Shown piece by piece: positions 2,371 through 43,223 of a stretch of 64,000 nt of DNA. A model generated the notes under the pieces. That model worked only from the letters and a program-made list of their open reading frames with translations. It did not search any database and had not been told where the DNA came from. The stretch is from contig JAUXNU010000151.1 of the NCBI GenBank assembly GCA_030682655.1, forward strand, positions 22,196 through 86,195. The letters are read 5' to 3'. The stretch's first letter is position 1. The number at the start of each line of letters is the position of its first letter. The stretch is from Actinomycetota bacterium. Its GTDB lineage: Bacteria > Actinomycetota > Coriobacteriia > Anaerosomatales > JAUXNU01. Made by a program: the position numbers and the translations under genes.

Positions 2371-4071
2371 CTAGATCCCCTCTGAGTCGGGAAGTTGAGC
2401 GGGAATGCGAAGCTCGAAGAGCGAACCGATGCCAGGCTCACTGTGCACGAGCACGAGGTCACCCCCCAGGACCTGCGCAAGGAGACGGGAGACCGAGAGA
2501 CCGAGACCTGTGCCGGTCGGCTTCCCCACCTCGGGCGTTCGAATCTGGTAGTACCGCTCGAATATCGCATTCTGCTGGTTCGCGGCGATTCCCGCCCCGG
2601 AGTCGGCGATCCGAAACACGACCCCGTCCTCGGAGCATTCGGCGTCGATGTCGATCCCCCCGGCGGTCGTGAACTTGGCGGCGTTGCTCAGGAGGTTGTA
2701 CAGAATCTGTCCGGCTCGACCGCGGTCCGTGAACACGACCGCCGGGGCGGCGCACTCGTGCACGGTCAGTTTGACGCCCTTCTCATCTAGAGAGGCGCGG
2801 AACGGTTCGACAGCGTCCTGGATGAGCACGTTGATGTCGAACTCCTCGGGGACGAGCCGCATGTGACCCGTCTCGATCTTCGACAGGTCAAGCATGTCGT
2901 CTACGATCGCCAGCAGATGCACACCTGCCCGGTTGACCATGTCGAGTTGGCGGAGCTGCTCCTCGGAAAGCTCTCCAGTCAGACCCTTCAACATGACGCC
3001 GCTGAATCCGATGATCGAGTTCAGCGGCGTGCGCAACTCGTGGCTCATGGACGCGAGAAACTCGTCTTTCGCGTGCAACGCCTGGACCAGTTCGTCGATA
3101 GACCCGCGCAAATCGCTGGTGCGCTCCTCGATGATGTGCTCCAGACTCCCCTTCACCTGCTCCAGCTCACGCACCGCCTCCTCGAGATCGCGCTCGCGCC
3201 AGCCGCGTTCAAGCTGGGCACGAAGTACTGGACCGACTGACTCGGCGATTGACTCGAGGAGGGCGACGACCTGCTCGTCATAGCCGTCCGGGCGATTGGC
3301 CACACTGATTTGGCCAATGACCTCGCCGTGATCCTTGATGGCCACCACAGCGTGGCATTTCACCGGGATGTGCCCATCCGGAACACGCGCCGGTTCGTTG
3401 GAGAAGCGCGACAGTCCATCCCGAAGACACTCAGCCCAGGTCGCAGCTCCCCACTCGTCACGGAGATACACGATCGACTTCGCGGCAACGCCGCACCCAT
3501 CCCATACGTCCCCCGCGAACGTAGGAACTATCGAGTTTCCATCGCGATCGATGTGACCGAGTGCCCCGATCTCGCTCCCCGTAGCCTCAAGAATCTCCTT
3601 CAGGACCGCTGAGTGCGCCTCGGCGTCTGTCCCCTTCATGAAGATCCGCGCAATCCGGTTGATGACGGCGGCGCGTTCCTCGGCAGCGCGCTCACACGTA
3701 ACGTCCACAAAGATGCAGTGCGTCTGCCTGAAGGAGCCGTCATCGTTGTGCGCGATGCGCCCGTTGGCCATCCAGCGAACGTGGGCGCCGTCCTTGCGCC
3801 TCATGGCGAAGTCGGCGCCGTGGGTCTCTCCGGCCTCCTTGAAATGGGGAAACCGCTCGCGGAACTTCGGAACCTGGTCCTCGGCGAGGAAGTCCCCGAA
3901 CCAGCGCCCGATAGCCTCCTCCGCAGAGTAGCCGAGACCTTCGAGCCACGCCGGGTTCACTGCGATGATGTTGCCATCCGAGTCGAGAGATTGGTATGGC
4001 AGCGGGGCGTTCTCGTATAGAAGACGAAACTCAACTGATGCATCGAGCGCGCGTGACTCCCGTTCGTCCAT
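2371..4071 (-). CDS. PAS-GAF sensor histidine kinase
   Basis: PAS at the N-terminus, GAF ('IGQISVANRPDGY'), H-box 'FLASMSHELRTPLN', N-box 'ILYNLLSNAAKFT', G boxes 'DSGAGI' and 'GTGLGL'. Confidence 0.95.
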   Translation of the reverse strand: MDERESRALDASVEFRLLYENAPLPYQSLDSDGNIIAVNPAWLEGLGYSAEEAIGRWFGDFLAEDQVPKFRERFPHFKEAGETHGADFAMRRKDGAHVRWMANGRIAHNDDGSFRQTHCIFVDVTCERAAEERAAVINRIARIFMKGTDAEAHSAVLKEILEATGSEIGALGHIDRDGNSIVPTFAGDVWDGCGVAAKSIVYLRDEWGAATWAECLRDGLSRFSNEPARVPDGHIPVKCHAVVAIKDHGEVIGQISVANRPDGYDEQVVALLESIAESVGPVLRAQLERGWRERDLEEAVRELEQVKGSLEHIIEERTSDLRGSIDELVQALHAKDEFLASMSHELRTPLNSIIGFSGVMLKGLTGELSEEQLRQLDMVNRAGVHLLAIVDDMLDLSKIETGHMRLVPEEFDINVLIQDAVEPFRASLDEKGVKLTVHECAAPAVVFTDRGRAGQILYNLLSNAAKFTTAGGIDIDAECSEDGVVFRIADSGAGIAANQQNAIFERYYQIRTPEVGKPTGTGLGLSVSRLLAQVLGGDLVLVHSEPGIGSLFELRIPAQLPDSEGI

Positions 4072-11807: not shown

Positions 11808-12461
11808 TGGTGGAGGCGCGGAGACCCGCTCCCCGACCTTTCGGTCGGACGTGGACTATTCCTTCTACCTGGAATGTCAGACCCCTCTGCTACCTTGATG
11901 GCATCAGTCGGGGTCTCCCGGGCAGGAGGGCGTTTGTGGAAGAACTCGAACACGACTTCTTCCACCCTAGTACACCGTGACCTCGCGGCCGTAGGTGCCT
12001 ATGAGTCTCTAGCCCGCTTACGCCTTTCGACTTCACGGGACGGCGTTGCCATAGCCTTGTCGGCCTTAGGTTTCACCGTTTGAGCCCTCTTTTCACCCGA
12101 CTGTTACCAGCCGGGGCGACCCTATTTGATCGAACTCCGGTCCACGACACACCCCTGGGAAGCATCTCCAGGCTCAGTCACCTGTTGGCATTCGGTCGAG
12201 CCGACGATCGGTGACCCACGTGGCTCTTCCTAGGTGATGAGGTTTCCCTCGCGGCCTATCACCGTCGGCCGTCCGGTAGTCCCCTGAATGACGTCGTTAC
12301 CGGTAGCGGGGACGCCTACCGGGCGACGTCGCTGCGCTATTTAGGCAGCGAGTGCATAATTATTGTCGACGCTTGAAGGCGTCTTGCCCCTGTTTAACGA
12401 GGTAAGGCGACCTCGGCCTGCTTCTTCCCTCAGACGTATCGTGTCGAAACCAGTCGCCCCC
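11808..12461 (-). ncRNA. ssrA: tmRNA, split by an intron (exon 1 12461-12129, exon 2 11824-11808; about 350 nt spliced)
   Basis: 5' GGGGGCG pairs with 3' CGCCUCC-A-CCA including G3:U70; tag (A)VDNNYALAA* at about 12372-12343; spliced T-arm CGGAG-UUCGAUU-CUCCG; lies directly downstream of smpB. Confidence 0.97.
11825..12128 (-). mobile_element. Group I self-splicing intron (IA-like, 304 nt, no ORF) in the tmRNA T-loop
   Basis: 5' splice after U with P1 CGAU|C/GGUCG (U:G wobble); terminal omega-G; P2 with GUAA loop; P3 GAGGGC/GCCCUC; P6 CCCG/CGGG; P7 GAGACU/AGUCC; two extra helices between P7 and P3; P9 CCGACC-GAAA-GGUCGG. Confidence 0.92.
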
Positions 12462-22057: not shown

Positions 22058-22993
22058 TCAGGTCACCGTGACAATCTCCCGCGCGGCGGCTGCGATGTCG
22101 TCTGCGGTCAGCCGAAAGTGCGCCATGAGGGCTACGGGGTCGCCGGAGGTCCCGAACACGTCTCTGACACCGATGCGGCGCAACGGAACCGGAGCGGACT
22201 CACCGAGCAGCTCCGCGACCGCCGAACCCAAGCCGCCGATGATCGAATGCTCCTCGCACGTGACGACGGCGCCTGTCCTACGTGCCGAGGACAGCAGCGT
22301 CTCCATATCGAGAGGCTTGATGGTTGCGACGTCGATCACCTCCGCCGAGACGCCCGCAGTCTCCAGAGTGTCCGCCGCGAGCAGCGCCTGCTCGACCATC
22401 ACTCCGCATGCTGCAAGGGTCACGTCGCTACCCTCCCGCAGCACGTACGCCTTGCCGAGTTCGAAGTTGAAGTCCTCGGCGTAGATTTCCGATACGCCCG
22501 CACGCCCAAGGCGGATGTAGAAGGGCCCTGGGGTGGTCGCCGCGACGCGAATCGCAGCACGAGCCGCGTTGAAGTCGGCCGGCACGAGCACGCGCATTCC
22601 GGGCAGCACGCGCATGAGCGCGAGGTCCTCGAGCATCTGGTGCGACCCGCCGTCGGGGCCAACGGTCACCCCCGCGTGGGTCGGCGCAAGCTTCACGTCA
22701 AGTCCGGAGTAGCACACGGTATTGCGAACCTGGTCGTACGCACGGCCAGTCGCAAACACCGCGAAGGAGCCGGTGAACGCGACCTTGCCGGCAACGGCGA
22801 GCCCGGCCGCCGTGCCGATCATGTTCTGCTCGGCGACTCCGACGTTGAAGAACCGGTCGGGATAGGCCGCCGCAAACACAGCCGTCGTCGTGGACTTAGA
22901 AAGGTCGGCTTCAACGGCGACGACATCCACGCCCTCCTTGGCCAGCTCGACGAGCGTCTTACCGAATGCCTCTCTGGTGGCCCGCTTAGACAT
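22058..22993 (-). CDS. Transketolase, C-terminal subunit
   Basis: 'RFFNVGVAEQNM', 'GPDGGSHQ', 'EEHSIIGGLG'. Confidence 0.95.
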   Translation of the reverse strand: MSKRATREAFGKTLVELAKEGVDVVAVEADLSKSTTTAVFAAAYPDRFFNVGVAEQNMIGTAAGLAVAGKVAFTGSFAVFATGRAYDQVRNTVCYSGLDVKLAPTHAGVTVGPDGGSHQMLEDLALMRVLPGMRVLVPADFNAARAAIRVAATTPGPFYIRLGRAGVSEIYAEDFNFELGKAYVLREGSDVTLAACGVMVEQALLAADTLETAGVSAEVIDVATIKPLDMETLLSSARRTGAVVTCEEHSIIGGLGSAVAELLGESAPVPLRRIGVRDVFGTSGDPVALMAHFRLTADDIAAAAREIVTVT

Positions 22994-23840
22994 CGGCTGC
23001 ATCCTCCTTGGCGAGCACGCACGCGAGTTCGTCGAGCGCGCAGCGGGTCTGGTCCTCGTTCGTACACTTGCCGTGCCAGTCCGCGTTGTTCTCCATGAAC
23101 GAAACGCCCCGGCCCTTGACGGTCCGCGCGACGATCGCCGACGGCACTCCCGACGTGGCCGCGGCCCCGGCGAAGGCGGCCAGCAGCGCCTCTACGTCAT
23201 GCCCATCGCAGCCGATGACGTTCCAGCCGAACGCGCCGAGTTTGGCTTCGATATCGCCGAGCGACATGACGTCCTCGCAGGCGCCGTCGATCTGAAGCCC
23301 GTTGTGGTCCACGATGGCCATGACGCTGTCCAGGCGGTAGTGCGCAGCGAGCATCGCTGCCTCCCAGACCTGCCCTTCCTGCATCTCACCGTCGCCGATG
23401 AGACAGTACACGCAAGCGGGGTTGCCGTTCGCGCGCAACCCAAGGGCGAGGCCGTTGGCGATGGACAGCCCCTGACCGAGCGAGCCGGTCGAAACCTCGA
23501 CGCCTGGCGTCTTCTTGCTGTCGGGGTGACCCTGCAAGATCGAACCGAGCTGGCGCAAGGTCGCCAGATGGTCGCGGCCGAAATAGCCCGCCTCGGCGAG
23601 AGCGGCGTAGAGCACCGGGGCGGCGTGACCCTTCGAGAGCACGAACCGGTCGCGCTCGGTCCAATCCGGTCGTGCGGAGTCATGACGCATCACACCGAAG
23701 TACAGAGTCGCGACGATGTCGGCTGCGGACAGAGAGCCGCCGGGATGCCCGGAACCCGCCTGCGCGAGCATCTCGACTATGTCGCGGCGCATGCGGGCCG
23801 CCATGCCCTCGATCTCACTGACATCGGGCACTTCGGCCAT
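22986..23840 (-). CDS. Transketolase, N-terminal subunit
   Basis: 'SGHPGGSLS', 'DRFVLSKGHAAP', TPP motif 'GDGEMQEGQVWEA'. Confidence 0.95.
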   Translation of the reverse strand: MAEVPDVSEIEGMAARMRRDIVEMLAQAGSGHPGGSLSAADIVATLYFGVMRHDSARPDWTERDRFVLSKGHAAPVLYAALAEAGYFGRDHLATLRQLGSILQGHPDSKKTPGVEVSTGSLGQGLSIANGLALGLRANGNPACVYCLIGDGEMQEGQVWEAAMLAAHYRLDSVMAIVDHNGLQIDGACEDVMSLGDIEAKLGAFGWNVIGCDGHDVEALLAAFAGAAATSGVPSAIVARTVKGRGVSFMENNADWHGKCTNEDQTRCALDELACVLAKEDAADV

Positions 23841-23843
23841 GTG

Positions 23844-24746
23844 TCACACTCCCATCTCTTTGAAACCCTCGCCGATCGCTTCGTGAACGTCTGAGATTAT
23901 CAGAAGTGCCGTCGGGTCGACCGCATGCACGATCGCCTTCAGCCCGTCGATCTCCGTGCGCGACACCACCGTGAAGATCATCTCGCGCGGCTGATTCGAG
24001 TAGACTCCGCGCGCCGAGATGGCTGTGGCTCCTCGGCCAAGGTCGTTGTTGATCGCTTCAGCGATGCGATCGGAATGCTCCGAGATGATGAACGCTGCCT
24101 TCTCGACACGCAGGCCCTCGAGCACGAGATCGATCGCGTTGCTCATCACGAAGATCGCTACCGCGCCGTAGAGCGCGAGCTCCGGACCGAACACGATCGC
24201 GGCTACCACTGTCACGCCCGCATCGACGAGCAGCATGAGCTGGCCGACGCCGAGCGGCACCTTCGACGACAGAAGCTGCGCGATGATGTCGGTCCCGCCT
24301 GTGTTGCCGCCTGACTTGAACACCATCCCCATGCCGACACCGGCAAGCGCACCGCCGTAGAGGGCCGCCAGCAGGTTGTCTCCGGCGGCGAGGTGTGGCG
24401 TGAAGGGCGCGAGGACATCGATGGCCACCGAAAGCGCCACCATGCCGTAGATCGTCTTGGCAGCGTAGCGCCACCCGCGCGCGCGTATGGCGACCGCGAG
24501 CAGGACGAGGTTCATCGCGAGCATCTGAATGCCGACGGGAAGGTTCAGCCCCTGCGCTTTGGCGAGGTGGTAGAACACCGTGGCGAGTCCGGAGACACCG
24601 CCGGCGGCGAGACGGTTCGGGATGAGAAACGCGTTGAGGCCCCATGCGGTGATCAGGATGCCGAGAGTCATCCACGCGTAGTCTCGGACCGGGCGGTGCT
24701 TGAGCACGAGGCCCGGACGCAGTCGCTTAAGGATTGGTACCATCAC
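23844..24746 (-). CDS. YitT-family membrane protein (DUF2179)
   Basis: 'LAAGGVSGLA', 'GGNTGGTDII', C-terminal 'DPTALLIISDVHEAIGEGF'. Confidence 0.93.
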   Translation of the reverse strand: MMVPILKRLRPGLVLKHRPVRDYAWMTLGILITAWGLNAFLIPNRLAAGGVSGLATVFYHLAKAQGLNLPVGIQMLAMNLVLLAVAIRARGWRYAAKTIYGMVALSVAIDVLAPFTPHLAAGDNLLAALYGGALAGVGMGMVFKSGGNTGGTDIIAQLLSSKVPLGVGQLMLLVDAGVTVVAAIVFGPELALYGAVAIFVMSNAIDLVLEGLRVEKAAFIISEHSDRIAEAINNDLGRGATAISARGVYSNQPREMIFTVVSRTEIDGLKAIVHAVDPTALLIISDVHEAIGEGFKEMGV

Positions 24747-25530
24747 TCACCCCCCGGTTCTCGACCGCACTCGTCCAGACGCCGCCAGCGTCCAGGTACG
24801 GCCTCGTTCGACGCGCATTCAGATGGCCAAGGACGGTAGCCGCATCGCGGTTGACGATCCGGTCCTCGGTCAGGCCAAGCTCCTCGGCAACGCGGATCGC
24901 AGCGTCGAAGCGGCCGACGTGAAGGTGATAGTGAGCGTCCGAGTTGATGGCGATCGGGACGCCCGCATCACGCGCGGCAGCAGCGAATTCGCGCTCGCGA
25001 TCGGCCGAACCGTTGCGCGCGCCCATGCTGTCGAAGCTGTGGTCGTTGAGCTCGATGATGACTCTGTGGCGGGCCGCCATGGCAACAACCGCCTCAAGAT
25101 CGAGCGGGAACTCCTGCTCGTTGCCCGGGTGCGTGATCATGTCGACGAGCGGGTGCGCTAGCACGCGCAACAGGGCCTCGGTGTTCCTACCGCGGTCCCG
25201 ATCGTCGAAGCCGGTGAGCGGGTGGAAGCCGACCGCGACGAAATCGAGTGCTTCGAGCACGATGTCGGGGATGTCGATGCCGTTGTCGCTGTCGGGCGAG
25301 GGATTGGCCTCGCATCCCTTGAGTATGCGAACGCCGTCGAGCACGCTCGGAATGACCTTCAGGTTCCAGAAATGCCAAGGATGAGCACCCTGCGGTACCG
25401 ATGGCCCGTGATCTGTGACGGCTATGAGTTCGAGGCCGCGTGCCCGCGCCGCCGACGCAAGCTCGGTGACCGTCGAGTACGCGTGCCCCGACGCAACAGT
25501 GTGGGTGTGCAAGTCTGCGCGCAGAAGCAT
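24727..25530 (-). CDS. PHP-domain phosphatase (YcdX-like)
   Basis: 'DLHTHT..SGHAYST', 'VTDHGP', 'NSDAH'. Confidence 0.92.
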   Translation of the reverse strand: MLLRADLHTHTVASGHAYSTVTELASAARARGLELIAVTDHGPSVPQGAHPWHFWNLKVIPSVLDGVRILKGCEANPSPDSDNGIDIPDIVLEALDFVAVGFHPLTGFDDRDRGRNTEALLRVLAHPLVDMITHPGNEQEFPLDLEAVVAMAARHRVIIELNDHSFDSMGARNGSADREREFAAAARDAGVPIAINSDAHYHLHVGRFDAAIRVAEELGLTEDRIVNRDAATVLGHLNARRTRPYLDAGGVWTSAVENRGVSDGTNP

Positions 25531-33700: not shown

Positions 33701-34025
33701 CGATTCGCTCCCGATAGTCACACGCAAGCTCATTCGGATCGATATCATCCGTGCAATCCGCCAGTCCACCACTATCCAGGGCCCGTAGAAGCAATCGTAG
33801 GATGCCGGACTCGGTGACGCGCTCTCCGTGCATGTCGAGCCAAAGTGGACACCCGAACTCACCCGACGATGCAATCTGCGCCGCCAGCACACTCTTCCCA
33901 TATCCCCCCGGCGCTTCTAGGATCAGAACGCGGGGACGAGTGCACTCGATCGATCGAGCGAGCCTCCTGCGTGTGAGAATGTGGCCGAAATCAGGTACTC
34001 CTGCGTGCTTGAGCCGCTCGCGCAT
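30708..34025 (-). CDS. MalT/STAND-like ATPase-TPR transcriptional regulator with C-terminal wHTH and BTAD domains
   Basis: Walker A 'APGGYGKS'; long helical region; 'FGGFDV...KARLLFAML...DHLWPE'; BTAD 'YRGDLLPGD...WREDIYQ'. ATG 34025 with RBS GGAGG. Confidence 0.88.
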   Translation of the reverse strand: MRERLKHAGVPDFGHILTRRRLARSIECTRPRVLILEAPGGYGKSVLAAQIASSGEFGCPLWLDMHGERVTESGILRLLLRALDSGGLADCTDDIDPNELACDYRERIVRAVRRCDSGLCVVIDDLAAIELSEGLLALPEMAATHASHALSIIITCRQVPDDIHGVLHRAMLLQAEDLRLSLEEALTFAGILGLDAHDPSFVHQVWEATAGQVALFGLVLRHAILRGTSELDECGSIRGLSSLVMHLVCSQLDDESQLCLYAMALLRDGSSQELRCVLGRRELPNLRNIGSCLPLVCVGGTAAADPVGHRFVVHDIARSILAGDQCVERLGAEAARVWSSALEILTARGDSERAGRLVLQSSDCERAADWLASFGERLLSSGHHQLLRELLDALPPGVLVQRPALLVLEAALLRETNMIDEARSKAVVARALADSMGDVATTVDALDVIARADMDMGRFDAARRTLAELLGLSNSQDGSFDPRREARVHLTAALASTYLGDGLAASEHLAKADGIASETMDEGLRCKVHLHAANKTALLDGHFSAAGRLMAEVARARAAPLSTRVLATGNLGVCLCEAGRLVRSVQHAERALEMCRGHGLEVYVGAFDGARAGAIFALGELSEGISLMRESIVRSLELDDTHAAAYNQLYCSTMSRALGDAEAAFSDAEIAAEAFSAGGFLVHESLAKLEMAASRLAMGDKLGAATLAKQERATASAADAAYHVLRADMILAEVACREGRVTEAVARILVHEDYILTESSNWQIAMYIRAFPSLLGVFANAIDPDLLPAHLLRMVLPRDAEGALRAAREIMDSGRWARLAVRILGEKELARFLERDALPRCSVKMFGGFDVSIGERVVGEREWKKRKARLLFAMLVLQQGRDVPRDQVHDHLWPEMDATRSRNNLYVVWSAMKGTLTPGAGKNDPCPYVQSVGGVCRVVGELVESDVAEFEALRAAAAAAGRAGDATKALAAYERISEIYRGDLLPGDLYEDWFSEFRDRYRHEFGDAMLAGARLHEAGGEPAQALGLLRRGLRYDSWREDIYQAALRCQIATGQRSAAIDTYFACRSRLVDDLGIDPSSETTRLYQQVLAMECVASEPEEIVEK

Positions 34026-34063
34026 GTGCCCTCCACCCTGGGAGTCACCTGAGGGGTAAAGGG

Positions 34064-34072
34064 ATTCTAGCA
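34064..34072 (-). promoter_or_regulatory. Extended -10 promoter (TGCTAGAAT) of the BTAD regulator
   Basis: Identical 9-mer to the secA promoter, 39 nt upstream of the ATG. Confidence 0.55.
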
Positions 34073-34110
34073 CTTCGGCGCCCAGTCAGGTAGACAGAGG
34101 CTCCCGCGCC

Positions 34111-34659
34111 CTACGGGTGCTCGGCAACCTTCATCATGTCGTACGCCACGAGCATCGCCCCGATGGCGAGAACGCAGTCCCCGATACTCACAAGCCCACG
34201 CCTGGTACGGCCTAGCGGCACAGGAATCCGATCTCCGAGAAACGCCAGATTCGTCTTCTCGTCGGCCTCCACGTGGATAGGCGACTCGTCGAGTCTAGCC
34301 CGTGCAGTCGTAACCCGGCTGTCCACGATTCTCGAGAGGTCAACCGGCATGCCGCCGTTTGCGGACACGACGACAATGTTCAGAACCAACCCGCAGGCCG
34401 CGAGCAGCATCCAACAGCGATCGGAATTCGCAATCGCAAGCAACAGCAGGCTTGTGGTCATGAGCACCCAGAGCGCCGTGATTGCACCGTCACCAATGCC
34501 CATGAAACGCCCGAGTACTGGGACGGCGCCTTGAATGACCATCACAAGGACTACCACTCGCTCGCCCTTAAGAGTGTGCGTCGCGAGTCCACCGATGCTC
34601 CGGTACCTGACCAGTCCCGTTCCGACGCCAACAAGGATTCCCAGAAGGAGCAGTTCCAC
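34111..34659 (-). CDS. DUF5317-family membrane protein (candidate LspA-like aspartic peptidase)
   Basis: 'GLVLNIVVVSANGGMPV', 'LAFLGDRIP', 'VSIGD' motifs; several TMs. Confidence 0.85.
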   Translation of the reverse strand: MELLLLGILVGVGTGLVRYRSIGGLATHTLKGERVVVLVMVIQGAVPVLGRFMGIGDGAITALWVLMTTSLLLLAIANSDRCWMLLAACGLVLNIVVVSANGGMPVDLSRIVDSRVTTARARLDESPIHVEADEKTNLAFLGDRIPVPLGRTRRGLVSIGDCVLAIGAMLVAYDMMKVAEHP

Positions 34660-34663
34660 GAGC

Positions 34664-35842
34664 TCAGTCCAGTTCCGCAGACAGGACTCGCTCAAGTGCC
34701 CCAACGACGCGCGGGTCGTACTTCTCGGCCGAGCCTGCGCGAATCACCCCAAGCACATCCGCAGCGCGTGCCTGTGGGGCGCTGTATCCTCCAGCGAACT
34801 CATCGAAGTCGGACGCGACACGAATCACCTGGGAGAGCAGTCTGTCAACACCGGTCGACTGCATCACCTCGAAGTCAGCGTGGTGATTCGCAAGGACAGG
34901 CCCCAGGTCTGCCAGGAACTCAACACCCTCCACAATTCTGGCACCCGTCTCCCAATGGCAGTCATGCGCACCGGCGCTGTCCTGAATCTTCCCGATGTCA
35001 TGCAGCAAGGCGGCGAATCCGAGTCTCTGAAGGTGCTTCGGGCGCAGGCCTAGACGCCTGCCCATGGCAGTCGCAAGCTCCGCCACTCTCTCCGCATGAC
35101 CACTGAACTCAATCTTCTCAAACTCAGCAAGCCTGGCCAGAACGCCGACTGTCTGCGTGTACGCGGTTCGAATCCGCAGCAGCAGGGCGAACGCGTGCTT
35201 CATTACCATCATCAGAGTGACGAGCACCGCCACGCCCGCCACGTTCATGGTTGGGTAGACGATAGCGAGAACAATTCCAACCGAGACCTGCCCCAAGTAC
35301 ATTGCGCCAACTAGCCGCACGAGAGACTTGACGGACGACCAGACAGCCTCACCCTCACCGAAAGCCCAAAGTGCTGCATAGGATGCAAGATCGGCCAGAA
35401 CGTAAGCAGCGGCCAGGACTAGGGCGACTAGCATCGTAGGCACACTCGGTTCAAGTAGCCGCTGGGGAAACCCGAGTCCCTCTGCGGCGTAGCCGAAGCC
35501 CAAGACAAGGAGAGGAATCCTCGAGAAGTCTAGAAGCATCAAGCCGGATTGTCTCTCTAGGGCCATTCCCAGCAGGAATGAGAGGATTGCACCTCCGCCC
35601 GCTGCGGCGACACCAGCAGGCATGCCCAGCAGAAGAACGGAGGCTACAGCAATACCACAACCTGCCTGGAGGACACCTCCTCGCGACAAGCGAAGCGGCA
35701 GCGCGCTGACCAGTGCGTACGACAAAGCGAAGAGACCAATCTCGGGCAAGTCCGCGAGCCTGATGCCAGCCTTGGCGGCAACGGCCACGGCACCAACACC
35801 GAGAACCAGAAAGGCTGTTGCGATCAGGGCACGTCGGGTCAT
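34664..35842 (-). CDS. Membrane-bound HD-GYP protein, degenerate
   Basis: Multi-TM N-terminus; 'GHAERV', 'LLHDIGK' kept, but HHE is HHA, the GYP loop is absent and VAD is VAS. ATGA overlap with the upstream gene. Confidence 0.85.
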   Translation of the reverse strand: MTRRALIATAFLVLGVGAVAVAAKAGIRLADLPEIGLFALSYALVSALPLRLSRGGVLQAGCGIAVASVLLLGMPAGVAAAGGGAILSFLLGMALERQSGLMLLDFSRIPLLVLGFGYAAEGLGFPQRLLEPSVPTMLVALVLAAAYVLADLASYAALWAFGEGEAVWSSVKSLVRLVGAMYLGQVSVGIVLAIVYPTMNVAGVAVLVTLMMVMKHAFALLLRIRTAYTQTVGVLARLAEFEKIEFSGHAERVAELATAMGRRLGLRPKHLQRLGFAALLHDIGKIQDSAGAHDCHWETGARIVEGVEFLADLGPVLANHHADFEVMQSTGVDRLLSQVIRVASDFDEFAGGYSAPQARAADVLGVIRAGSAEKYDPRVVGALERVLSAELD

Positions 35843-37137
35843 GTGCGAGCCTCCCATCGGATATCCCCGCGAAGTACGCGCGCCAGGACATCAGCGTCGA
35901 CTCTGACCAGGAGCGCCTCGACAACAGACTGGTCGAGGGTGTCACCGGCCGCCCGGCGGACTACATCAGCTGCCTCTGAGAACGGAAGTGCCCGCCGATA
36001 GGCTCTGTCCGACGTAATGGCGTCGAACGTGTCGGCCACGGCGAGCACCTTCGCACCCTCAGGGAGCCCACTACCAACAAGTCCGAGCGGATATCCGCTA
36101 CCATCCATTCGCTCATGGTGCGCGGCGATGAGGGGAACAACCTCCGCCAGGAAGTCGATGCCTTCAAGCACCTGGGCGCCACTGAGGGGATGGAGCTTCA
36201 CCTCTCCATACTCCTCCGAAGTTAGAGCCGCTGGCTTGGTAAGCGTAGCGACGCTGACGCCGACCTTGCCGATGTCGTGCAAGAGCGCAGCGAGTTCGAT
36301 AGTCTGCACCGACTCGGGACCTAGCGAGAGCCCGTCTGCAATCTGCCTTGCATAGAAGGCGACGCGCTCTGAATGTCCGCGAGTGTACGGATCCTTCGCC
36401 TCAAGAACAGCGATGAGCGAGCGCAGTGTGTCACGGTAGGACTCCGACAAGTGCCTGTACACCTGGAAGGTCTGCCTCGAAACAGCAAAGGGAACGACCA
36501 CGAGGAGTGCTCCCGGGAGCCCAGCCAGCAGAAGCAATTGGGCCAACACAATACCCAGGAGCGCGAGAACGACGAGACTGACTGAATACGACGAGAAGCT
36601 CTGCCGCCAGACTTCACGAAACGGTACGTCCGCCGACAGCGAAATCGCGCCCGCCACGAGTAGCATGTTGGTGAGAGCCTGAACAGCAGCCGCAGCAAGA
36701 GCGGCCACGAGGATTTGGAGCGACAGCGCCGGAGTCGGCTGCAAGAGCAGTGGCGCCACCCCGAACGCACTCAGAGTCAAGCCCGCCACCACGCCCGACA
36801 GTGCAAGTTGGCTAACGTTGAAGAGCATGCGCAGTGGCGGCTTACGCGCCACGATGTCCTGAGGCGGAATGGCGGAGCAGACGCAAACTATTGCCCCCAT
36901 GAGTGGTCCGCCCAGCAACACCGCAGCGAACTCGATGGCAAAGGCCAGGGAGACCGACCCGCCAAACGGGATACGGAACGCGAAACACTCCGCCAGGAAA
37001 CTCAGTGCCCCGAGAAAGAGCGTCAGCCGCCAGTCAGGGACTGCGCCGTCGCGTGCAACAGCAGCGACCGCAACGGTTGCGACCATGGAAACCAGCACAG
37101 TGTAAGAGAGTACTCTGTTCTTCAACGGCGCACTCAT
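35839..37137 (-). CDS. Membrane-bound HD-GYP c-di-GMP phosphodiesterase
   Basis: Multi-TM N-terminus; 'EAKDPYTRGHSERV', 'LHDIGK', 'HHERMDGSGYP', 'AVADTFDAITSDRAYR'. Confidence 0.93.
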   Translation of the reverse strand: MSAPLKNRVLSYTVLVSMVATVAVAAVARDGAVPDWRLTLFLGALSFLAECFAFRIPFGGSVSLAFAIEFAAVLLGGPLMGAIVCVCSAIPPQDIVARKPPLRMLFNVSQLALSGVVAGLTLSAFGVAPLLLQPTPALSLQILVAALAAAAVQALTNMLLVAGAISLSADVPFREVWRQSFSSYSVSLVVLALLGIVLAQLLLLAGLPGALLVVVPFAVSRQTFQVYRHLSESYRDTLRSLIAVLEAKDPYTRGHSERVAFYARQIADGLSLGPESVQTIELAALLHDIGKVGVSVATLTKPAALTSEEYGEVKLHPLSGAQVLEGIDFLAEVVPLIAAHHERMDGSGYPLGLVGSGLPEGAKVLAVADTFDAITSDRAYRRALPFSEAADVVRRAAGDTLDQSVVEALLVRVDADVLARVLRGDIRWEART

Positions 37138-37151
37138 CACAGGAAGTTCGG

Positions 37152-37379
37152 TGGGCCGACGCCGTGTAAACAGGGACGAGCTACCAACGGAAAGACGCGC
37201 CGCCACCAAGAACAAGAGCGGCCAGAGAGCTGAGAATAACGATCATACGCTTCATGTTGAGAAGACCCCCTCTCGGGATTCACGGTCTTCTCCCATTCCG
37301 CTAGTGATGGAAGAACCCTGTCCGCTCCGCTCATTTCAGTGCTGACAGTGTTCAAACCGATTACCACGGCGTCGGCCCA
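37152..37379. repeat. Perfect 15-bp inverted repeat enclosing the peptide gene (arms 37152-37166 and 37365-37379)
   Basis: TGGGCCGACGCCGTG at 37152 and its exact reverse complement CACGGCGTCGGCCCA at 37365. Confidence 0.9.
37181..37255 (-). CDS. 24-aa signal-peptide-like peptide MKRMIVILSSLAALVLGGGASFRW (putative pheromone precursor)
   Basis: ATG with upstream GAGAGGGGG; TAG at 37181-37183; KR, hydrophobic core, GGGASFRW tail; lies inside the operon; absent from the ORF track. Confidence 0.85.
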   Translation of the reverse strand: MKRMIVILSSLAALVLGGGASFRW

Positions 37380-37386
37380 AACTGGG

Positions 37387-38067
37387 CTATGAGGTTGTCA
37401 AGAAGCCAAGACGCCTGTTTATTGCATCAAGCGTGGCCCGGACAATTGAGTCGTTTTCATTTTGCCGGACGAGCGCGGATCCCGCGTACGACTGCTCTCC
37501 CAATGGAGAGACAAGCGTAACGCAAGACACAGCAACATGCTCGCGTCCGAGTTGTGTGATGGTTACGTCCTCCAGCGCGAAACTGTGCGCGCCATGAATA
37601 TACTGCTCGACCGCGCTGAGGGTCGCAAGCGCCACAAGGCGCTGCCTGCCCGTCCGGCTTGCCGGACCGGCGACATCCCCGACGTAGTGATCGCCTTCGA
37701 TCTCCAGTGTCACGGACACCGTCGCGTGAACACCGGTGACGGTGGCGTTGATGGTCACGATGCGCGCGCGAGCCTCGACCCCTGCGCTCGGTTCAGGCGC
37801 GAGAGAGTCCTGACCGAGCTGCGCGATCGAGATCTTCTTGTGATCGATGGGGATGCCGAATCGCGCCATGATCGTGGATTCGATGTCGCGCACGAGTTGC
37901 TTCGGCGACTTGGTCGGAAGCGCCAGGATGTGGACTTCCTGGATATTCCCCTCAGGAGAGGCCACAACGCGCGCAGCCTTGATCTCGGCGACTTGCCCGA
38001 GAAGCTTTTCGATTTCCTCGATGGAGACGTGCGACAATGCCTGGTCCACAAGTGCTCCCTGCTTCAT
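37387..38067 (-). CDS. Conserved hypothetical protein with a LeuA-regulatory-domain-like C-terminus
   Basis: Two beta-beta-beta-alpha-like repeats ending 'VALATLSAV' and 'DSIVRATLDAINRRL'. Confidence 0.8.
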   Translation of the reverse strand: MKQGALVDQALSHVSIEEIEKLLGQVAEIKAARVVASPEGNIQEVHILALPTKSPKQLVRDIESTIMARFGIPIDHKKISIAQLGQDSLAPEPSAGVEARARIVTINATVTGVHATVSVTLEIEGDHYVGDVAGPASRTGRQRLVALATLSAVEQYIHGAHSFALEDVTITQLGREHVAVSCVTLVSPLGEQSYAGSALVRQNENDSIVRATLDAINRRLGFLTTS

Positions 38068-38133
38068 GTACTACTACTCTAGCTGTCTCCATTCAGTCTG
38101 CGCATAGCCCCGAGGGCGCATTCTCTTCGCCCC

Positions 38134-38163
38134 ACTGTATTCGGGCGACAAAGGGAAAGTCAA
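38134..38163 (-). promoter_or_regulatory. SigA-type promoter of the peptide/HD-GYP operon
   Basis: TTGACT-N18-TACAGT just downstream of the hpf terminator. Confidence 0.55.
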
Positions 38164-38210
38164 CCGAAACGACAGCCTCGCGCGGTCACATTCCTTAAGC
38201 TCACGGCACC

Positions 38211-38243
38211 AAAAAGGGCGGGACGCCGACTGGCACCCCGCCC
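38211..38243 (-). terminator. Intrinsic terminator after hpf
   Basis: GGGCGGG...CCCGCCC stem followed by TTTTT on the minus strand. Confidence 0.8.
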
Positions 38244-38259
38244 CTGACAAACGCTCCTG

Positions 38260-38814
38260 CTATCTCAGCTGAGGCTCGATCAAGCCGTAGTCCCCATCGT
38301 TGCGTCGGTACAGAACGCTGACCGTCTCCGTTTCGGCCGACGTGAACACGAAGAAATCATGGCCAAGGAGCTCCAGTTGCAGGATCGCCTCCTCGGGGGT
38401 CATGGGCTTGAGCTCGAGGGATTTCGTCTTCACGATGGCTGGCTCCTCGGCCTCCGGCTCGCCGATGTCCGGCGCGGGCACCGGCGGTATGGCGGCCTTG
38501 GGAGAGTGACGATCGGCCATCTTTCCCTTGTACTTGCGGAACTGCGTCTCAAGCTTCTCGGAGACAAGATCAATGGCGGCGTACATGTCCATTGACGCTT
38601 CCTTGGCGCGGATGACCGGCCCGCGCGTGATCCACACAGTGACCTCGGCGATCTGGTTCTTCTCGATCGAAGGGTTCTTCTCGTGGTAGATCTCAACCTC
38701 GACCGTCATCGTGTCCTGGTCGAGGATCTTGCCCAAGCGGCCGATCTTCTCCTCGGCATAGTCGTGAATCGGCTGGGTGACCGCCATATGGCGTCCCTTC
38801 ACGATCATCTTCAT
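38260..38814 (-). CDS. hpf: Long ribosome hibernation promoting factor (HPF/RaiA)
   Basis: 'DMYAAIDLVSEKLETQFRKYK'; C-terminal 'KPMTPEEAILQLELLGHDFFVF...YRRNDGDYGLI'. Confidence 0.97.
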   Translation of the reverse strand: MKMIVKGRHMAVTQPIHDYAEEKIGRLGKILDQDTMTVEVEIYHEKNPSIEKNQIAEVTVWITRGPVIRAKEASMDMYAAIDLVSEKLETQFRKYKGKMADRHSPKAAIPPVPAPDIGEPEAEEPAIVKTKSLELKPMTPEEAILQLELLGHDFFVFTSAETETVSVLYRRNDGDYGLIEPQLR

Positions 38815-38957
38815 GTGAGCCCTCCTTGGTTACCGGTCCTGACAAAGAAGATACCCATGCCCCGACGCTATGGAGCACGCGCGTTCGACAAGCGGATGCA
38901 CACGAGCGTGCGCGGGAAAGGTTAGTTGAATCCGCCGGAGATGGCCAGCACACCAGC

Positions 38958-39707
38958 TCAGATGATATGGCCGAGGAAGTCTTTGGTGCGCTCGTTCTGG
39001 GGGTTGTCGAAGACTTCGGACGGCGTGCCCTCTTCGACTATCACGCCCTCGTCCATGAATACGGCGCGGCTCGCGACGTCGCGCGCAAAGCCCATCTCGT
39101 GTGTCACGACGAGCATGGTCATTCCGGCGCGAGCAAGTTCCTTCATGACGTCGAGCACGCCGCGAACGAGCTCGGGGTCGAGCGCCGAGGTGACCTCGTC
39201 AAACAACATCACGTGTGGATCCATCGCAAGCGCCCGCGCGATTGCCACGCGCTGCTGCTGACCTCCGGAGAGCTGCGACGGGTAGTAGTCGACCCGGTCG
39301 CCCAAGTCGACCCTCTCGAGCTGCTCGATCGCGATGCGATCGGCCTCCTCCTTGGAACGGCCGAGCACCCTACGCTGCGCGAGCATGACGTTGCCCTTGG
39401 CAGTGAGGTGCGGGAACAGATTGAAGGACTGGAAGACCATGCCGATGCGCTCGCGCACCTCGTTGATGTCGGTCTTTGGGGCATTGACCTGGATGTCTTC
39501 GAGCCAGACCTCCCCGCCGGTGGGTTCTTCTAGCCGGTTCACGCATCGCAGCAACGTCGACTTCCCCGACCCTGACGGGCCAAGGATAACCACCACTTCG
39601 CCCTTGGTGACGTCCATGTCGACTCCGCGCAACACTTCGAGGTCGCCGAAGCGCTTATGCAGGTTCTTGATTCGCACCACCGGTTCGGAGTTCACCGTAC
39701 TGCTCAC
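38958..39707 (-). CDS. Polar amino acid ABC transporter ATP-binding protein
   Basis: '[13 protein letters not shown]', '[15 protein letters not shown]', '[11 protein letters not shown]'. Confidence 0.96.
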
Positions 39708-40984
39708 GGGCGATCACCCACAGTCTTCGGAGTCGAATCACCGGGCGCTATCGCGTGCTCGGACTCGATCGGTTCAGGCATGAGCGCCTCTCGCGCGCCG
39801 CCCCCGCCACCCTCCGCTTCAGCGAGCCTACTCTCGAGACCAGCGACGAAGCGCCCGAGCGGAATTGTCACCACGAGATAGAAGCCTGCCGCAAGCATGT
39901 ATGGCGTCGTGTTGAACTTGGCGGCCGAAATCTCCTTGGCCTTGAGCGCCATCTCCGCCAAACCGACTGCAGCGAGCAAGGCGGTGTCTTTGAACAGAAG
40001 AATGAACTCACTCATCATCGTCGGCAGAATGCGCCGAACGGTCTGCGGAATGATGACGTAGGCCATGGCCTGCGGCGTCGACATCCCGAGAGAGCGCGCG
40101 GCCTCCATCTGGCCCTTGTGAATCGACTGGATGCCAGCACGGAAGATCTCGGCCATGTACGCCGCGGAGTTCAGGCTCAGAACCACGTATGCACGCATGT
40201 ACAGTGTGTTCGTGATGCCGAAGAGGCCCGCCTGGTTGAGCCAGGGTACCGTTTCGGTAAGCGTCTTGTAGGCCGGCATCAGCGGGAGTCCGAAGAATAC
40301 GAGCAGAATCTGCAGGAATAGCGGTGTGCCTCGGATGATGTCGACGTAGATCGTCGCCGGCCATCGCGCCCACCGCGTCCTCGCCATCTTCATGAACGAC
40401 AGGATCAGACCGAACGGAATCGCGAAAGCGAAAGACACGAGCACGATGGCCAGGGAGACGGGAAACGCCTTGGCTATGATGGGGAATGACTCTTGCGCAA
40501 CCTGCGGCGACAGGAACTGGTGCGTCACGGTGGACGACTCCCACCAGTCGTAGAACGCTGCGAAGCCTTCGGGTCCCGTGCCGAAGCGAATCTCGTAGTC
40601 CCCAATTACCAGGACATCGCCGTCGCTCAAGGGCGCCTGGTCGAACACGTCGCCGTTCAATCGGACGGCCTGTGTGCTCTCCCCGCTCGCCACAACGCGC
40701 CACGACGGCTGCTCCCCGGCCTCTTCGGCAGGCACCCGTTCGAGAGTCGCGACTACGCCGCTCTCGATGCCGGAAGTGATGCGCACGTCTCCGAGGCGGC
40801 CGATGGTCGCCTCGGGCTCGGTGAGCCGATACACGGATTCGCGAGCCTCTGCCGCCCGTGTGGCTTCGGTGTTGCGGAAGAACACGCGGTCGGGGCGCTG
40901 CATCGTCAGCAGTTGCCATGCTAGAACCCCGACAACCAGCGCGGCGATTGCGACGGTGAGGGTTCTGCGCTGCCTGCGAGTCAA
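39704..40984 (-). CDS. Polar amino acid ABC permease with an N-terminal FHA-like domain
   Basis: '[10 protein letters not shown]', '[11 protein letters not shown]', EAA motif '[10 protein letters not shown]'; extra domain of about 95 aa after the first TM. Confidence 0.92.
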
Positions 40985-42968: not shown

Positions 42969-43223
42969 CGGTGCTTTCACCCGGCTGACCTGGTCTTTGA
43001 CCCCACACTCGCATACCGGAGCTTTCGCTTGATGCGATCTCACTAGCGGCCCTCTCGCCCGCCAGCCAGGATGGCTGGACCGGACGGTACGACTTACCCC
43101 TAAGACGCGCCATGCTCGCGCGACGGCCGAAACCGCCGGCTTACGTGGGTCCTTTCGGCCGCGTCTACCATGGACTAGGATCGCTTGCGCGACCCGCAAC
43201 CACAGACCCGAGTGAAAGCACCG
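42969..43223 (-). ncRNA. raiA-motif RNA
   Basis: Recognised conserved blocks GUGGUUG, CCACGUAAG, GAGCAUGG-GCG-CUUAG-GUAAGUC, GGCGAGAG, UAGUGAGA, GCGAGUGUGGGGUCAAAGACCAGGUCA; 16-bp closing helix; typical context downstream of comF and upstream of binding-protein and raiA genes. Confidence 0.9.

Follow-up and report, generated by a model that had tools for sequence, protein, structure and literature searches.

The locus considered here raises the question of why a very small gene should be enclosed by the two arms of a perfect inverted repeat. It was found in an Actinomycetota bacterium (Coriobacteriia; Anaerosomatales; NCBI GenBank assembly GCA_030682655.1), on contig JAUXNU010000151.1, of which positions 22,196 to 86,195 of the forward strand were analysed; this whole stretch of 64,000 nucleotides (nt) is called the window and its own numbering is used below. 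The genes around the repeat are all on the minus strand and follow in the order p226 (37387..38067, -), encoding a protein of 226 amino acids (aa), a 24-codon open reading frame (ORF), and an hdgA-like gene (35839..37137, -) encoding a cyclic di-GMP (c-di-GMP) phosphodiesterase with MASE9 and HD-GYP domains; p226 and the HD-GYP gene are 249 nt apart. The 5' arm of the repeat, TGGGCCGACGCCGTG (37379-37365, -), starts 7 nt past the TAG stop codon of p226. The 3' arm, CACGGCGTCGGCCCA (37166-37152, -), is its exact complement (100% over 15 nt) and lies 14 nt past the stop of the ORF, at a separation of 198 nt from the 5' arm and 14 nt upstream of the ATG of the HD-GYP gene (37137). A preliminary description of this DNA had reported a 15-bp (base pair) inverted repeat around a peptide gene, and the arms are indeed perfect and placed as it said.

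The chance expectation of a perfect 15-nt inverted repeat within ~250 nt is, by our own estimate, roughly 3e-5. The 15-mer of the arms occurs at two sites only, i.e., the arms themselves, in the whole 2.94-Mb genome, so that a dispersed repeat or a miniature inverted-repeat transposable element is ruled out. A 251-nt stretch carrying both arms has a fold energy of -100.3 kcal/mol, compared with -85.6 +/- 4.5 kcal/mol for 200 shuffled sequences, none of which is as stable (z = -3.27), and the arms are paired in the minimum free energy and in the centroid structures alike.

The same arrangement, hereafter the cassette, recurs in Actinomycetota and Bacillota: more than 60 distinct loci have it between p226 and the MASE9 HD-GYP gene. 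Within the order of the window (Anaerosomatales-type Coriobacteriia), p226 is present in 50 of 61 genomes, all from other families, and the cassette has the same gene context in 25 families. The HD-GYP gene lies ~240 nt after p226 in the fetched loci that are long enough to show it, and the nucleotide conservation of this spacer is higher, within the order, than that of the flanking genes. Beyond the order, the cassette follows homologues of p226 (36-46% identity) in other classes of Actinomycetota and in several Bacillota, including Caloranaerobacter, Brassicibacter, a metagenome-assembled genome (MAG) labelled as Symbiobacterium, Carboxydocellales, Desulfosporosinus and others. The order of its elements is constant: 5' arm, AGCGRAGCGR motif, hairpin with a UAGCGRA loop, Shine-Dalgarno sequence (SD), ORF of 24-26 codons, 3' arm and HD-GYP gene. 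For frequency counts, a covariance model of the core (86 positions) was used, which misses some divergent Bacillota cassettes, so that the values are lower bounds: one copy per genome was found in at least 34 of 301 Actinomycetota and at least 33 of 401 Bacillota-side genomes, and none by this model in the other orders of Coriobacteriia in the sample. Twenty of the 26 hit loci that were fetched were parsed, and in all 20 the neighbours are p226 and an HD-GYP gene, a peptide ORF is present and the closing helix measures 8-27 bp. In three genomes (L119, L121 and L122), p226 is divergently oriented and the closing helix (12-27 bp) is kept, which indicates that the helix belongs to the cassette and not to the stop codon of p226.

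The pairing itself is conserved in these relatives. When the 60 nt past the p226 stop were scored against the 75 nt past the ORF stop in 65 distinct cassettes, cognate arms reached 33.4 (median 14 bp), compared with 23.4 for arms of different genomes and 17.9 +/- 2.9 for shuffled 3' regions. In an alignment of 64 cassettes (MAFFT, sequence only), pairing is retained in 87% of cells for the 15 base pairs of the window's helix, and 13 of these pairs have changed on both sides; the helix has 95 double-change cells against 35 +/- 5 in shuffles, a value reached in none of 500. RNAalifold, run on 25 spacers of the order, recovers the closing helix together with three inner hairpins, P2, P3 (loop CUAGCGG) and P4; the compensatory changes seen in the closing helix are GC to AU (13/10) and AU to GC (14/7 and 13/8). 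Judging from these alignments, the closing helix and P3 covary. The contiguous closing helix is 15 bp in the window and 7-19 bp in relatives, in which the 5' arm starts 0-13 nt past the p226 stop. Taken as a whole, these data confirm that the inverted repeat is a real closing helix of a folded RNA of ~230 nt that encloses the peptide gene; the ~230-nt folded cassette of the preliminary description is thereby upheld in more than 60 cassettes from two phyla, by the very compensatory changes that it had proposed to look for.

A discrete RNA that ends at this helix was observed in Coriobacteriaceae bacterium EMTCatB1 (locus L082), a member of the same order whose cassette is present in four biocathode metatranscriptomes (arms 3169-3185 and 3373-3389; ORF start 3292). 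In the run X14, depth is 22,567-25,000 over exactly 3171-3390, compared with 277 over p226 upstream; downstream it is 723 (read-through) and then 117 over the HD-GYP gene. Illumina adapter is joined to the RNA sequence at 3171 and at 3390. In X12, p226 and the cassette are in one contig (mean depth 3,922; 14 downstream) that ends at 3387 followed by 23 A; as A/T runs are found on transfer-messenger RNA (tmRNA) ends too in this library, the A-run at 3387 marks a real RNA end. In X15, p226 and the cassette are likewise in one contig (mean 1,800; 0-12 downstream), which ends at 3374. The tmRNA of EMTCatB1 shows the same apparent depth ceiling of 25,000 in X14, with its flanking genes at 142-226. 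U3171, at the 5' end, is base-paired to A3387, and the 3' end is found at this A or up to 3 nt beyond it. In this relative, the cassette thus forms a discrete RNA, ~220 nt long, whose ends lie at the closing helix; it reaches a tmRNA-like level and exceeds the upstream gene roughly 80-fold and the HD-GYP gene roughly 200-fold. The preliminary description had suggested that a stable peptide mRNA might be released in excess over its neighbours and would be seen as a species of about 200 nt with non-uniform coverage; both were found in L082 (~23,000 vs 277 and 117). The ends carried over by homology (3171 to 3387-3390) predict a stable RNA of 228-231 nt in the window (37149..37379, -). Its 5' end would be U37379 in the conserved and covarying 5' arm UGGGCCGACGCCGUG (37365..37379, -), and its 3' end would be the homologue of A3387 in the covarying 3' arm CACGGCGUCGGCCCA (37152..37166, -), or up to 3 nt further.

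The excess over the neighbouring genes holds in a second phylum. The case is L109, a MAG from the Bacillota in which the arms are at 3167-3177 and 3364-3374. Three bioreactor metatranscriptomes, independent of each other, each yield a single contig, from the interior of its cassette (3175-3348, 3192-3356 and 3201-3353, respectively), and none from the flanks; a fourth run has a depth of 31 compared with 4-5 upstream and 0 downstream.

Two details of the X14 data concern the RNA ends of L082. A third adapter-joined end, with depth at the ceiling, is located at 3278, the first G of the SD (about 37271 in the window); this suggests a 108-nt species of the 5' domain (3171-3278), or else a position in the P4 loop at which cleavage or priming recurs. 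At 3171, an untemplated GTC stands between the adapter and the RNA 5' end, and is the reverse complement of the 3' overhang GAC (3388-3390). Fold-back of the cDNA with fill-in through the closing helix would explain it; if so, both ends come from one molecule.

How the ends are made can be approached from the transcription signals. A promoter-like site, TTGACT-18-TACAGT, is located upstream of p226 (38134..38163, -) and is the only such site between 36900 and 38400; the scan found none between p226 and the 5' arm. In L082, the mapped 5' end has no -10 box at the right distance and X14 contains contiguous reads from p226 into the cassette. These data favour co-transcription with p226 followed by processing. 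As for the processing itself, the own genome encodes RNase III and RNase J. In L082, the 5' end is set back by 2 bp within the 17-bp helix and the 3' end protrudes from it by 1 nt; the 3' overhang is 0-3 nt. This geometry is within one nucleotide of the staggered cut of RNase III, which leaves a 2-nt 3' overhang; it is compatible with such a cut without being diagnostic, and would also fit 5'-to-3' trimming by RNase J if the 3' side were trimmed back to the helix as well. In its final codons (..FLTT*), p226 reads TTCTTGACAAC and contains a perfect -35-like TTGACA (37394-37399, -), with homologous sites in relatives. Its use as the -35 box of the cassette was rejected, as it ends 19 nt before the mapped L082 5' end, which is too close. 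A TTGACA string is also present upstream of the L119 cassette, where p226 is not upstream.

Combining these data, the closing helix is probably an end-defining and stabilising clamp on a processed peptide mRNA that possibly has a second function as RNA, and the following model can be drawn. In the genome of the window, the cassette would most likely be transcribed together with p226. The precursor would then be cut or trimmed back to both ends of the helix, so that processing, and not a promoter and a terminator, would produce the ends. Pairing of the 5' end with the 3' end would shield the RNA from exonucleases; such protection of both ends would explain its accumulation far above the p226 and HD-GYP mRNAs, the helix thus being the presumed cause of its stability. 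The clamp would in this way uncouple the dosage of the peptide mRNA from that of the neighbouring genes. By homology, the same RNA would be formed in the organism of the window.

Several points weigh against this model. The runs that contain the sequence of the window itself are DNA metagenomes only, with no RNA run among them, so that the RNA species is carried over from relatives that share 41-63% identity in p226. The runs used consist of assembled contigs, which are strandless and give a mean depth per contig with a ceiling near 25,000, and the RNA ends are deduced from contigs joined to an adapter or an A-run. The L109 contigs have no sharp ends at the helix. The divergent p226 of L119, L121 and L122 implies that the cassette needs its own promoter there, so that processing from a p226 transcript is not universal. 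Finally, in many low-GC lineages the 3' arm runs into a U-rich tract, and termination could make the 3' end there.

The ORF enclosed by the helix (MKRMIVILSSLAALVLGGGASFRW plus stop; 37181..37255, -) is conserved. All of the 64 distinct orthologous ORFs (24-26 aa) retain their start and stop codons. Their entropies at codon positions 1, 2 and 3 are 1.02, 0.55 and 1.56, respectively, and G20 and A21 are invariant with freely varying third positions. On this codon periodicity, the ORF is to be regarded as a real gene under protein-level selection. The peptide consensus reads M-K-[KRT]-x, ~14 hydrophobic residues and [GAS]-[GS]-G-A-x-[FWY]-[RKQ]-[WFL], which predicts a single membrane span or a signal-peptide-like sequence. 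The peptide has no match above cut-off in Pfam or NCBIfam; Phr_nterm, the profile that would point to Phr/AimP-type secreted pheromone precursors, is hit by Bacillota peptides only, at 14.8-15.5 bits against a cut-off of 25, and the window's own peptide does not match it. None of eight orthologous peptides was found in a collection of 15 billion proteins, and the family is thus unannotated. Counted from its first base, the stop codon is 17 nt before the 3' arm, which would probably allow translation of the ORF without opening of the helix.

Between the 5' arm and the ORF, three hairpins recur. P2 (37313..37353, -; GAAC-ACUGU ... ACAG-G-GUUC), found by RNAalifold, presents the invariant GAGCGGAGCGG (37332-37322); it is nearly invariant within the order, which is why its covariation is weak, and L079 has the compensating variant GAGUUCU/AGAACUC. 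P3 (37288..37315, -; UUCUUCCAU / AUGGGAGAA) is identified by covariation: it is paired in 91.7% of cells compared with 50-65% when slid, six of its seven pairs have changed on both sides and none of 500 shuffles is as good. P4 (37259..37292, -; GAGAAGACC / GGUCUUCUC) encloses the SD, AGGGGG (37271-37266), and the SD-AUG spacer. Its support is weaker (78% paired vs 47-61% when slid), and in Bacillota the SD-AUG spacer pairs instead with a segment 5' of P3, i.e., in a different register. In the window, it is a perfect 9-bp pairing (37292-37284 / 37267-37259) whose 3' arm occupies the space between SD and AUG, in agreement with the preliminary description, which had seen the ribosome binding site as partly occluded. 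That description had also nested an ACAGGG/CCCUGU helix within the cassette: both strings are present in the window (37321-37316 and 37170..37175, -, respectively), but the complement occurs in only one of 49 cassettes, the window's own, and CCCUGU lies outside the conserved structure, so that this helix is best taken as due to chance, the conserved inner helices being P2, P3 and P4.

From its position, P4 should throttle translation by holding the SD-to-AUG region. The outer pairs of P3 and P4 compete for GAGAA, and a translational toggle between P4 and an extended P3 is possible on structural grounds. The AGCGRAGCGR motif is invariant in both phyla and the P3 loop, CACUAGCGGA, carries a third copy of AGCGR. 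These three invariant copies, two shown by P2 and one in the P3 loop, most likely form a binding site or a tertiary-contact module, and the motifs suggest that the cassette RNA may also act as RNA. A search for targets complementary to AGCGRAGCGR, in cis or in trans, gave four matches in the window compared with 1.5 expected, which is not significant.

Other explanations of the closing helix have to be weighed against a protective clamp. It could be, together with a U- or pyrimidine-rich run, a long-range terminator or attenuator whose terminated product is the abundant RNA and whose read-through into the HD-GYP gene is regulated. In its favour, depth falls by a factor of 30 to 280 at the 3' arm, and U-rich runs follow this arm in many Bacillota and non-Coriobacteriia Actinomycetota (e.g., UAUUUUUUU, UCUUUUUAU and CCUUUUUUC); in low-GC lineages, where such a run measures 4-8 nt (L092, L097, L099-L103, L107, L108, L110, L117 and L124), the helix does resemble a terminator stem with a loop of ~190 nt. 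In the window, however, no U run is present: the sequence past the 3' arm is CCGAACUUCC, the arms would enclose a loop of 198 nt, and a terminator scan finds nothing at the site. The mapped 3' ends are 0-3 nt past the last pair and outside any U tract, and termination would leave unexplained a 5' end that falls exactly on the partner base. This explanation is thus unlikely, although plausible in the low-GC lineages with a U-rich run. The preliminary description had alternatively envisaged a switch in which ribosomes that finish the peptide ORF (or p226) open the helix and thereby control the HD-GYP gene. The proximity of the 5' arm to the p226 stop, and of the 3' arm to the ORF stop (often within 10-20 nt), would agree with such coupling. 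It is weakened by the variable gap (5 to 31 nt) between ORF stop and 3' arm, which lacks the fixed stop-to-structure spacing of TnaC-type leader-peptide attenuation, as well as by the retention of the helix where p226 is transcribed divergently. Furthermore, the hydrophobic core of the peptide is conserved in character and not in sequence, as in a membrane segment and not as in an arrest peptide. Control by ribosomes at these stop codons thus appears extremely improbable.

Two further proposals start from the interior of the cassette. A riboswitch-like leader, in which AGCGR with P2 and P3 would act as a sensor that toggles extended P3 against P4 and controls the peptide, the HD-GYP gene or both in response to, perhaps, a c-di-GMP-related signal or p226, would account for the invariant unpaired nucleotides beside covarying stems, for the competition for GAGAA and for the fixed association with a c-di-GMP phosphodiesterase gene; tandem dsRNA-binding domains are, moreover, second among the fold matches of p226. 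Yet there is no Rfam match at E <= 1, both c-di-GMP classes included, the element encloses an ORF and is a separate abundant RNA and not the 5' end of the HD-GYP mRNA, the best fold match of p226 is the LeuA regulatory domain and its N-terminal domain is of a generic fold, and the register of the SD helix differs in Bacillota. A sensor of this kind is therefore doubtful. Alternatively, the 24-aa hydrophobic peptide could be a membrane toxin of a type I toxin-antitoxin-like system, its mRNA being silenced by 5'-3' pairing and a buried SD as in hok and aapA1, to which the sequestered SD and the long-range closing helix would correspond. This is very unlikely: the cassette is single-copy and in strict synteny with p226 and the HD-GYP gene over two phyla, unlike the patchy multi-copy pattern of type I systems, its RNA reaches tmRNA-like levels, and no antisense gene was noticed, on contigs that are strandless.

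The clamped cassette RNA belongs to no described family. Rfam 15 (including c-di-GMP-I/II, raiA and 6S) gives no match at E <= 1 in 34000-40000 of the window, and none on the cassettes of eight Bacillota and Actinomycetota loci; at the gathering thresholds, the whole window contains only raiA and tmRNA, both away from the cassette. By analogy, it most resembles, in functional terms, coding small RNAs such as RNAIII/hld and stable RNAs with stem-paired ends. RNAIII/hld of Staphylococcus aureus, which encodes the 26-aa delta-haemolysin, and SR1/SR1P of Bacillus subtilis are dual-function coding small RNAs. Like them, the cassette is an abundant, stable and structured RNA of a few hundred nt with a very short ORF and long-range helices, and of the features of dual-function small RNAs it shows a discrete abundant RNA, in relatives only, and a selected peptide. 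It differs from them in its fixed location beside p226 and the MASE9 HD-GYP gene in two phyla and in the single helix that joins both ends, and has no sequence or Rfam relation to them. Ribosomal RNA precursors, the scRNA of B. subtilis (by RNase III) and 6S RNA are stable RNAs released through a stem formed by their flanks. The flanks of the cassette likewise pair and the mature ends map to the stem in L082, but the RNA carries an ORF and its helix (12-19 bp) is shorter than classical RNase III substrates. The type I toxin mRNAs hok, aapA1 and fst, which fold back 5' to 3', have in common with the cassette a small hydrophobic ORF, a buried SD and a closing interaction between 5' end and 3' region; the cassette differs in being single-copy, syntenic across phyla and very abundant, with no antisense partner seen on the strandless contigs. 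MgrB is a small membrane protein that regulates the membrane sensor PhoQ. The ~25-aa peptide, with one predicted transmembrane segment and encoded beside a membrane signalling enzyme, recalls this pair, whereas its family is unannotated, with a sub-threshold signal-peptide resemblance only, and its partner is a candidate. With the raiA motif RNA (RF03072), the cassette shares its size, conservation and structure, its distribution in Actinomycetota and Bacillota, a biochemical function that is unknown and the neighbourhood of hpf; it is a separate RNA, with no raiA match at E <= 1 and a coding ORF.

The genes that accompany the cassette give some indication of its context. p226 is a conserved two-domain protein that is always near the cassette (motifs PKQxVRDxES, DHKKISIAQ and ATLDAINRR) and has no family assignment, sequence searches of PDB, Pfam and NCBIfam giving no match. 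Its AlphaFold model (predicted local distance difference test score 88) has a C-terminal (beta-beta-beta-alpha)x2 domain with the fold of the LeuA regulatory domain. The latter is also the top hit when the full-length model is compared with known folds (E = 5e-6), ahead of tandem dsRNA-binding domains, which reach E = 1e-4 to 1e-3 at low TM-scores. Taken alone, the N-terminal domain adopts a generic alpha-beta-beta-alpha-beta fold and matches the AMP-binding C-terminal subdomain and secretion-ring motifs. The idea of p226 as a demonstrable RNA-binding protein was not sustained, as the LeuA fold ranks above the low-TM dsRNA-binding domains; it is a candidate partner through its constant association only. 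Downstream, the HD-GYP gene is followed by a degenerate HD membrane paralogue, a DUF5317 gene and a BTAD regulator. Such a tandem, with one intact and one degenerate membrane HD-GYP, corresponds to the hdgA/hdgB pair of Streptomyces venezuelae, whose deletion has no developmental phenotype, the activating signals being thought absent under the conditions tested (PMC6205966). MASE9 has been proposed to bind a ligand inside the membrane (bioRxiv 10.1101/2021.11.05.467447), which makes the co-encoded membrane peptide an attractive candidate partner; the peptide would then act on the adjacent membrane HD-GYP protein. The literature makes no mention of DUF5317, and the MASE9 and hdgA/hdgB papers describe no small ORF or RNA.

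It may tentatively be proposed, as a possibility to be viewed with some reserve, that the cassette is an undescribed class of dual-function RNA at tmRNA level and the obligate third partner of a c-di-GMP module formed by p226 and the MASE9 HD-GYP protein (hdgA/hdgB-like) in Actinomycetota and Bacillota. In this module, the peptide would be an intramembrane ligand or partner of MASE9, and the AGCGR triplet module would have as its partner another RNA or a protein, p226 being one possibility. Whatever its exact role, the cassette represents a structured RNA that is new and widely conserved, together with a small-protein family that lacks annotation; it occurs in about one tenth of the genomes in samples of two phyla, and the expression data from relatives place it among the most abundant small RNAs of the cell. 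It offers a concrete candidate input for MASE9 HD-GYP phosphodiesterases and would be a clean natural case in which one long-range helix defines where an mRNA begins and ends and makes its level independent of that of the surrounding genes. These proposals are directly testable, as the helix covaries, the RNA ends are defined and some carriers can be cultivated (Caloranaerobacter azorensis DSM 13643 and Brassicibacter mesophilus DSM 24659).

Some minor observations concern the surroundings of the cassette. In many relatives, although not in the genome of the window, a second hairpin of 12-17 bp is located just past the 3' arm, with the HD-GYP start codon in its loop and its own 3' arm in the first codons (L010, L012, L014, L015, L018, L019, L020-L024, L027, L029, L030 and L032). 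In some Bacillota (L090 and L093), spoVS follows p226 in place of the cassette. A second, partial copy of p226 (66% identity) is carried by a short contig of the own assembly (G000:C193:923-1525) and could come from a second strain or be a paralogue; this assembly has 4.6% contamination, and the core RNA model finds a single cassette in it. Upstream of p226 lies hpf (38260-38814, -), and a raiA-motif RNA (RF03072, 159.8 bits) is located at 42976-43216 (-), 5.6 kb upstream and on the same strand as hpf, p226 and the cassette. The window also contains a tmRNA gene at 12111-12454 (-), and hpf is thus flanked by two large structured RNAs whose roles are unknown or partly known.

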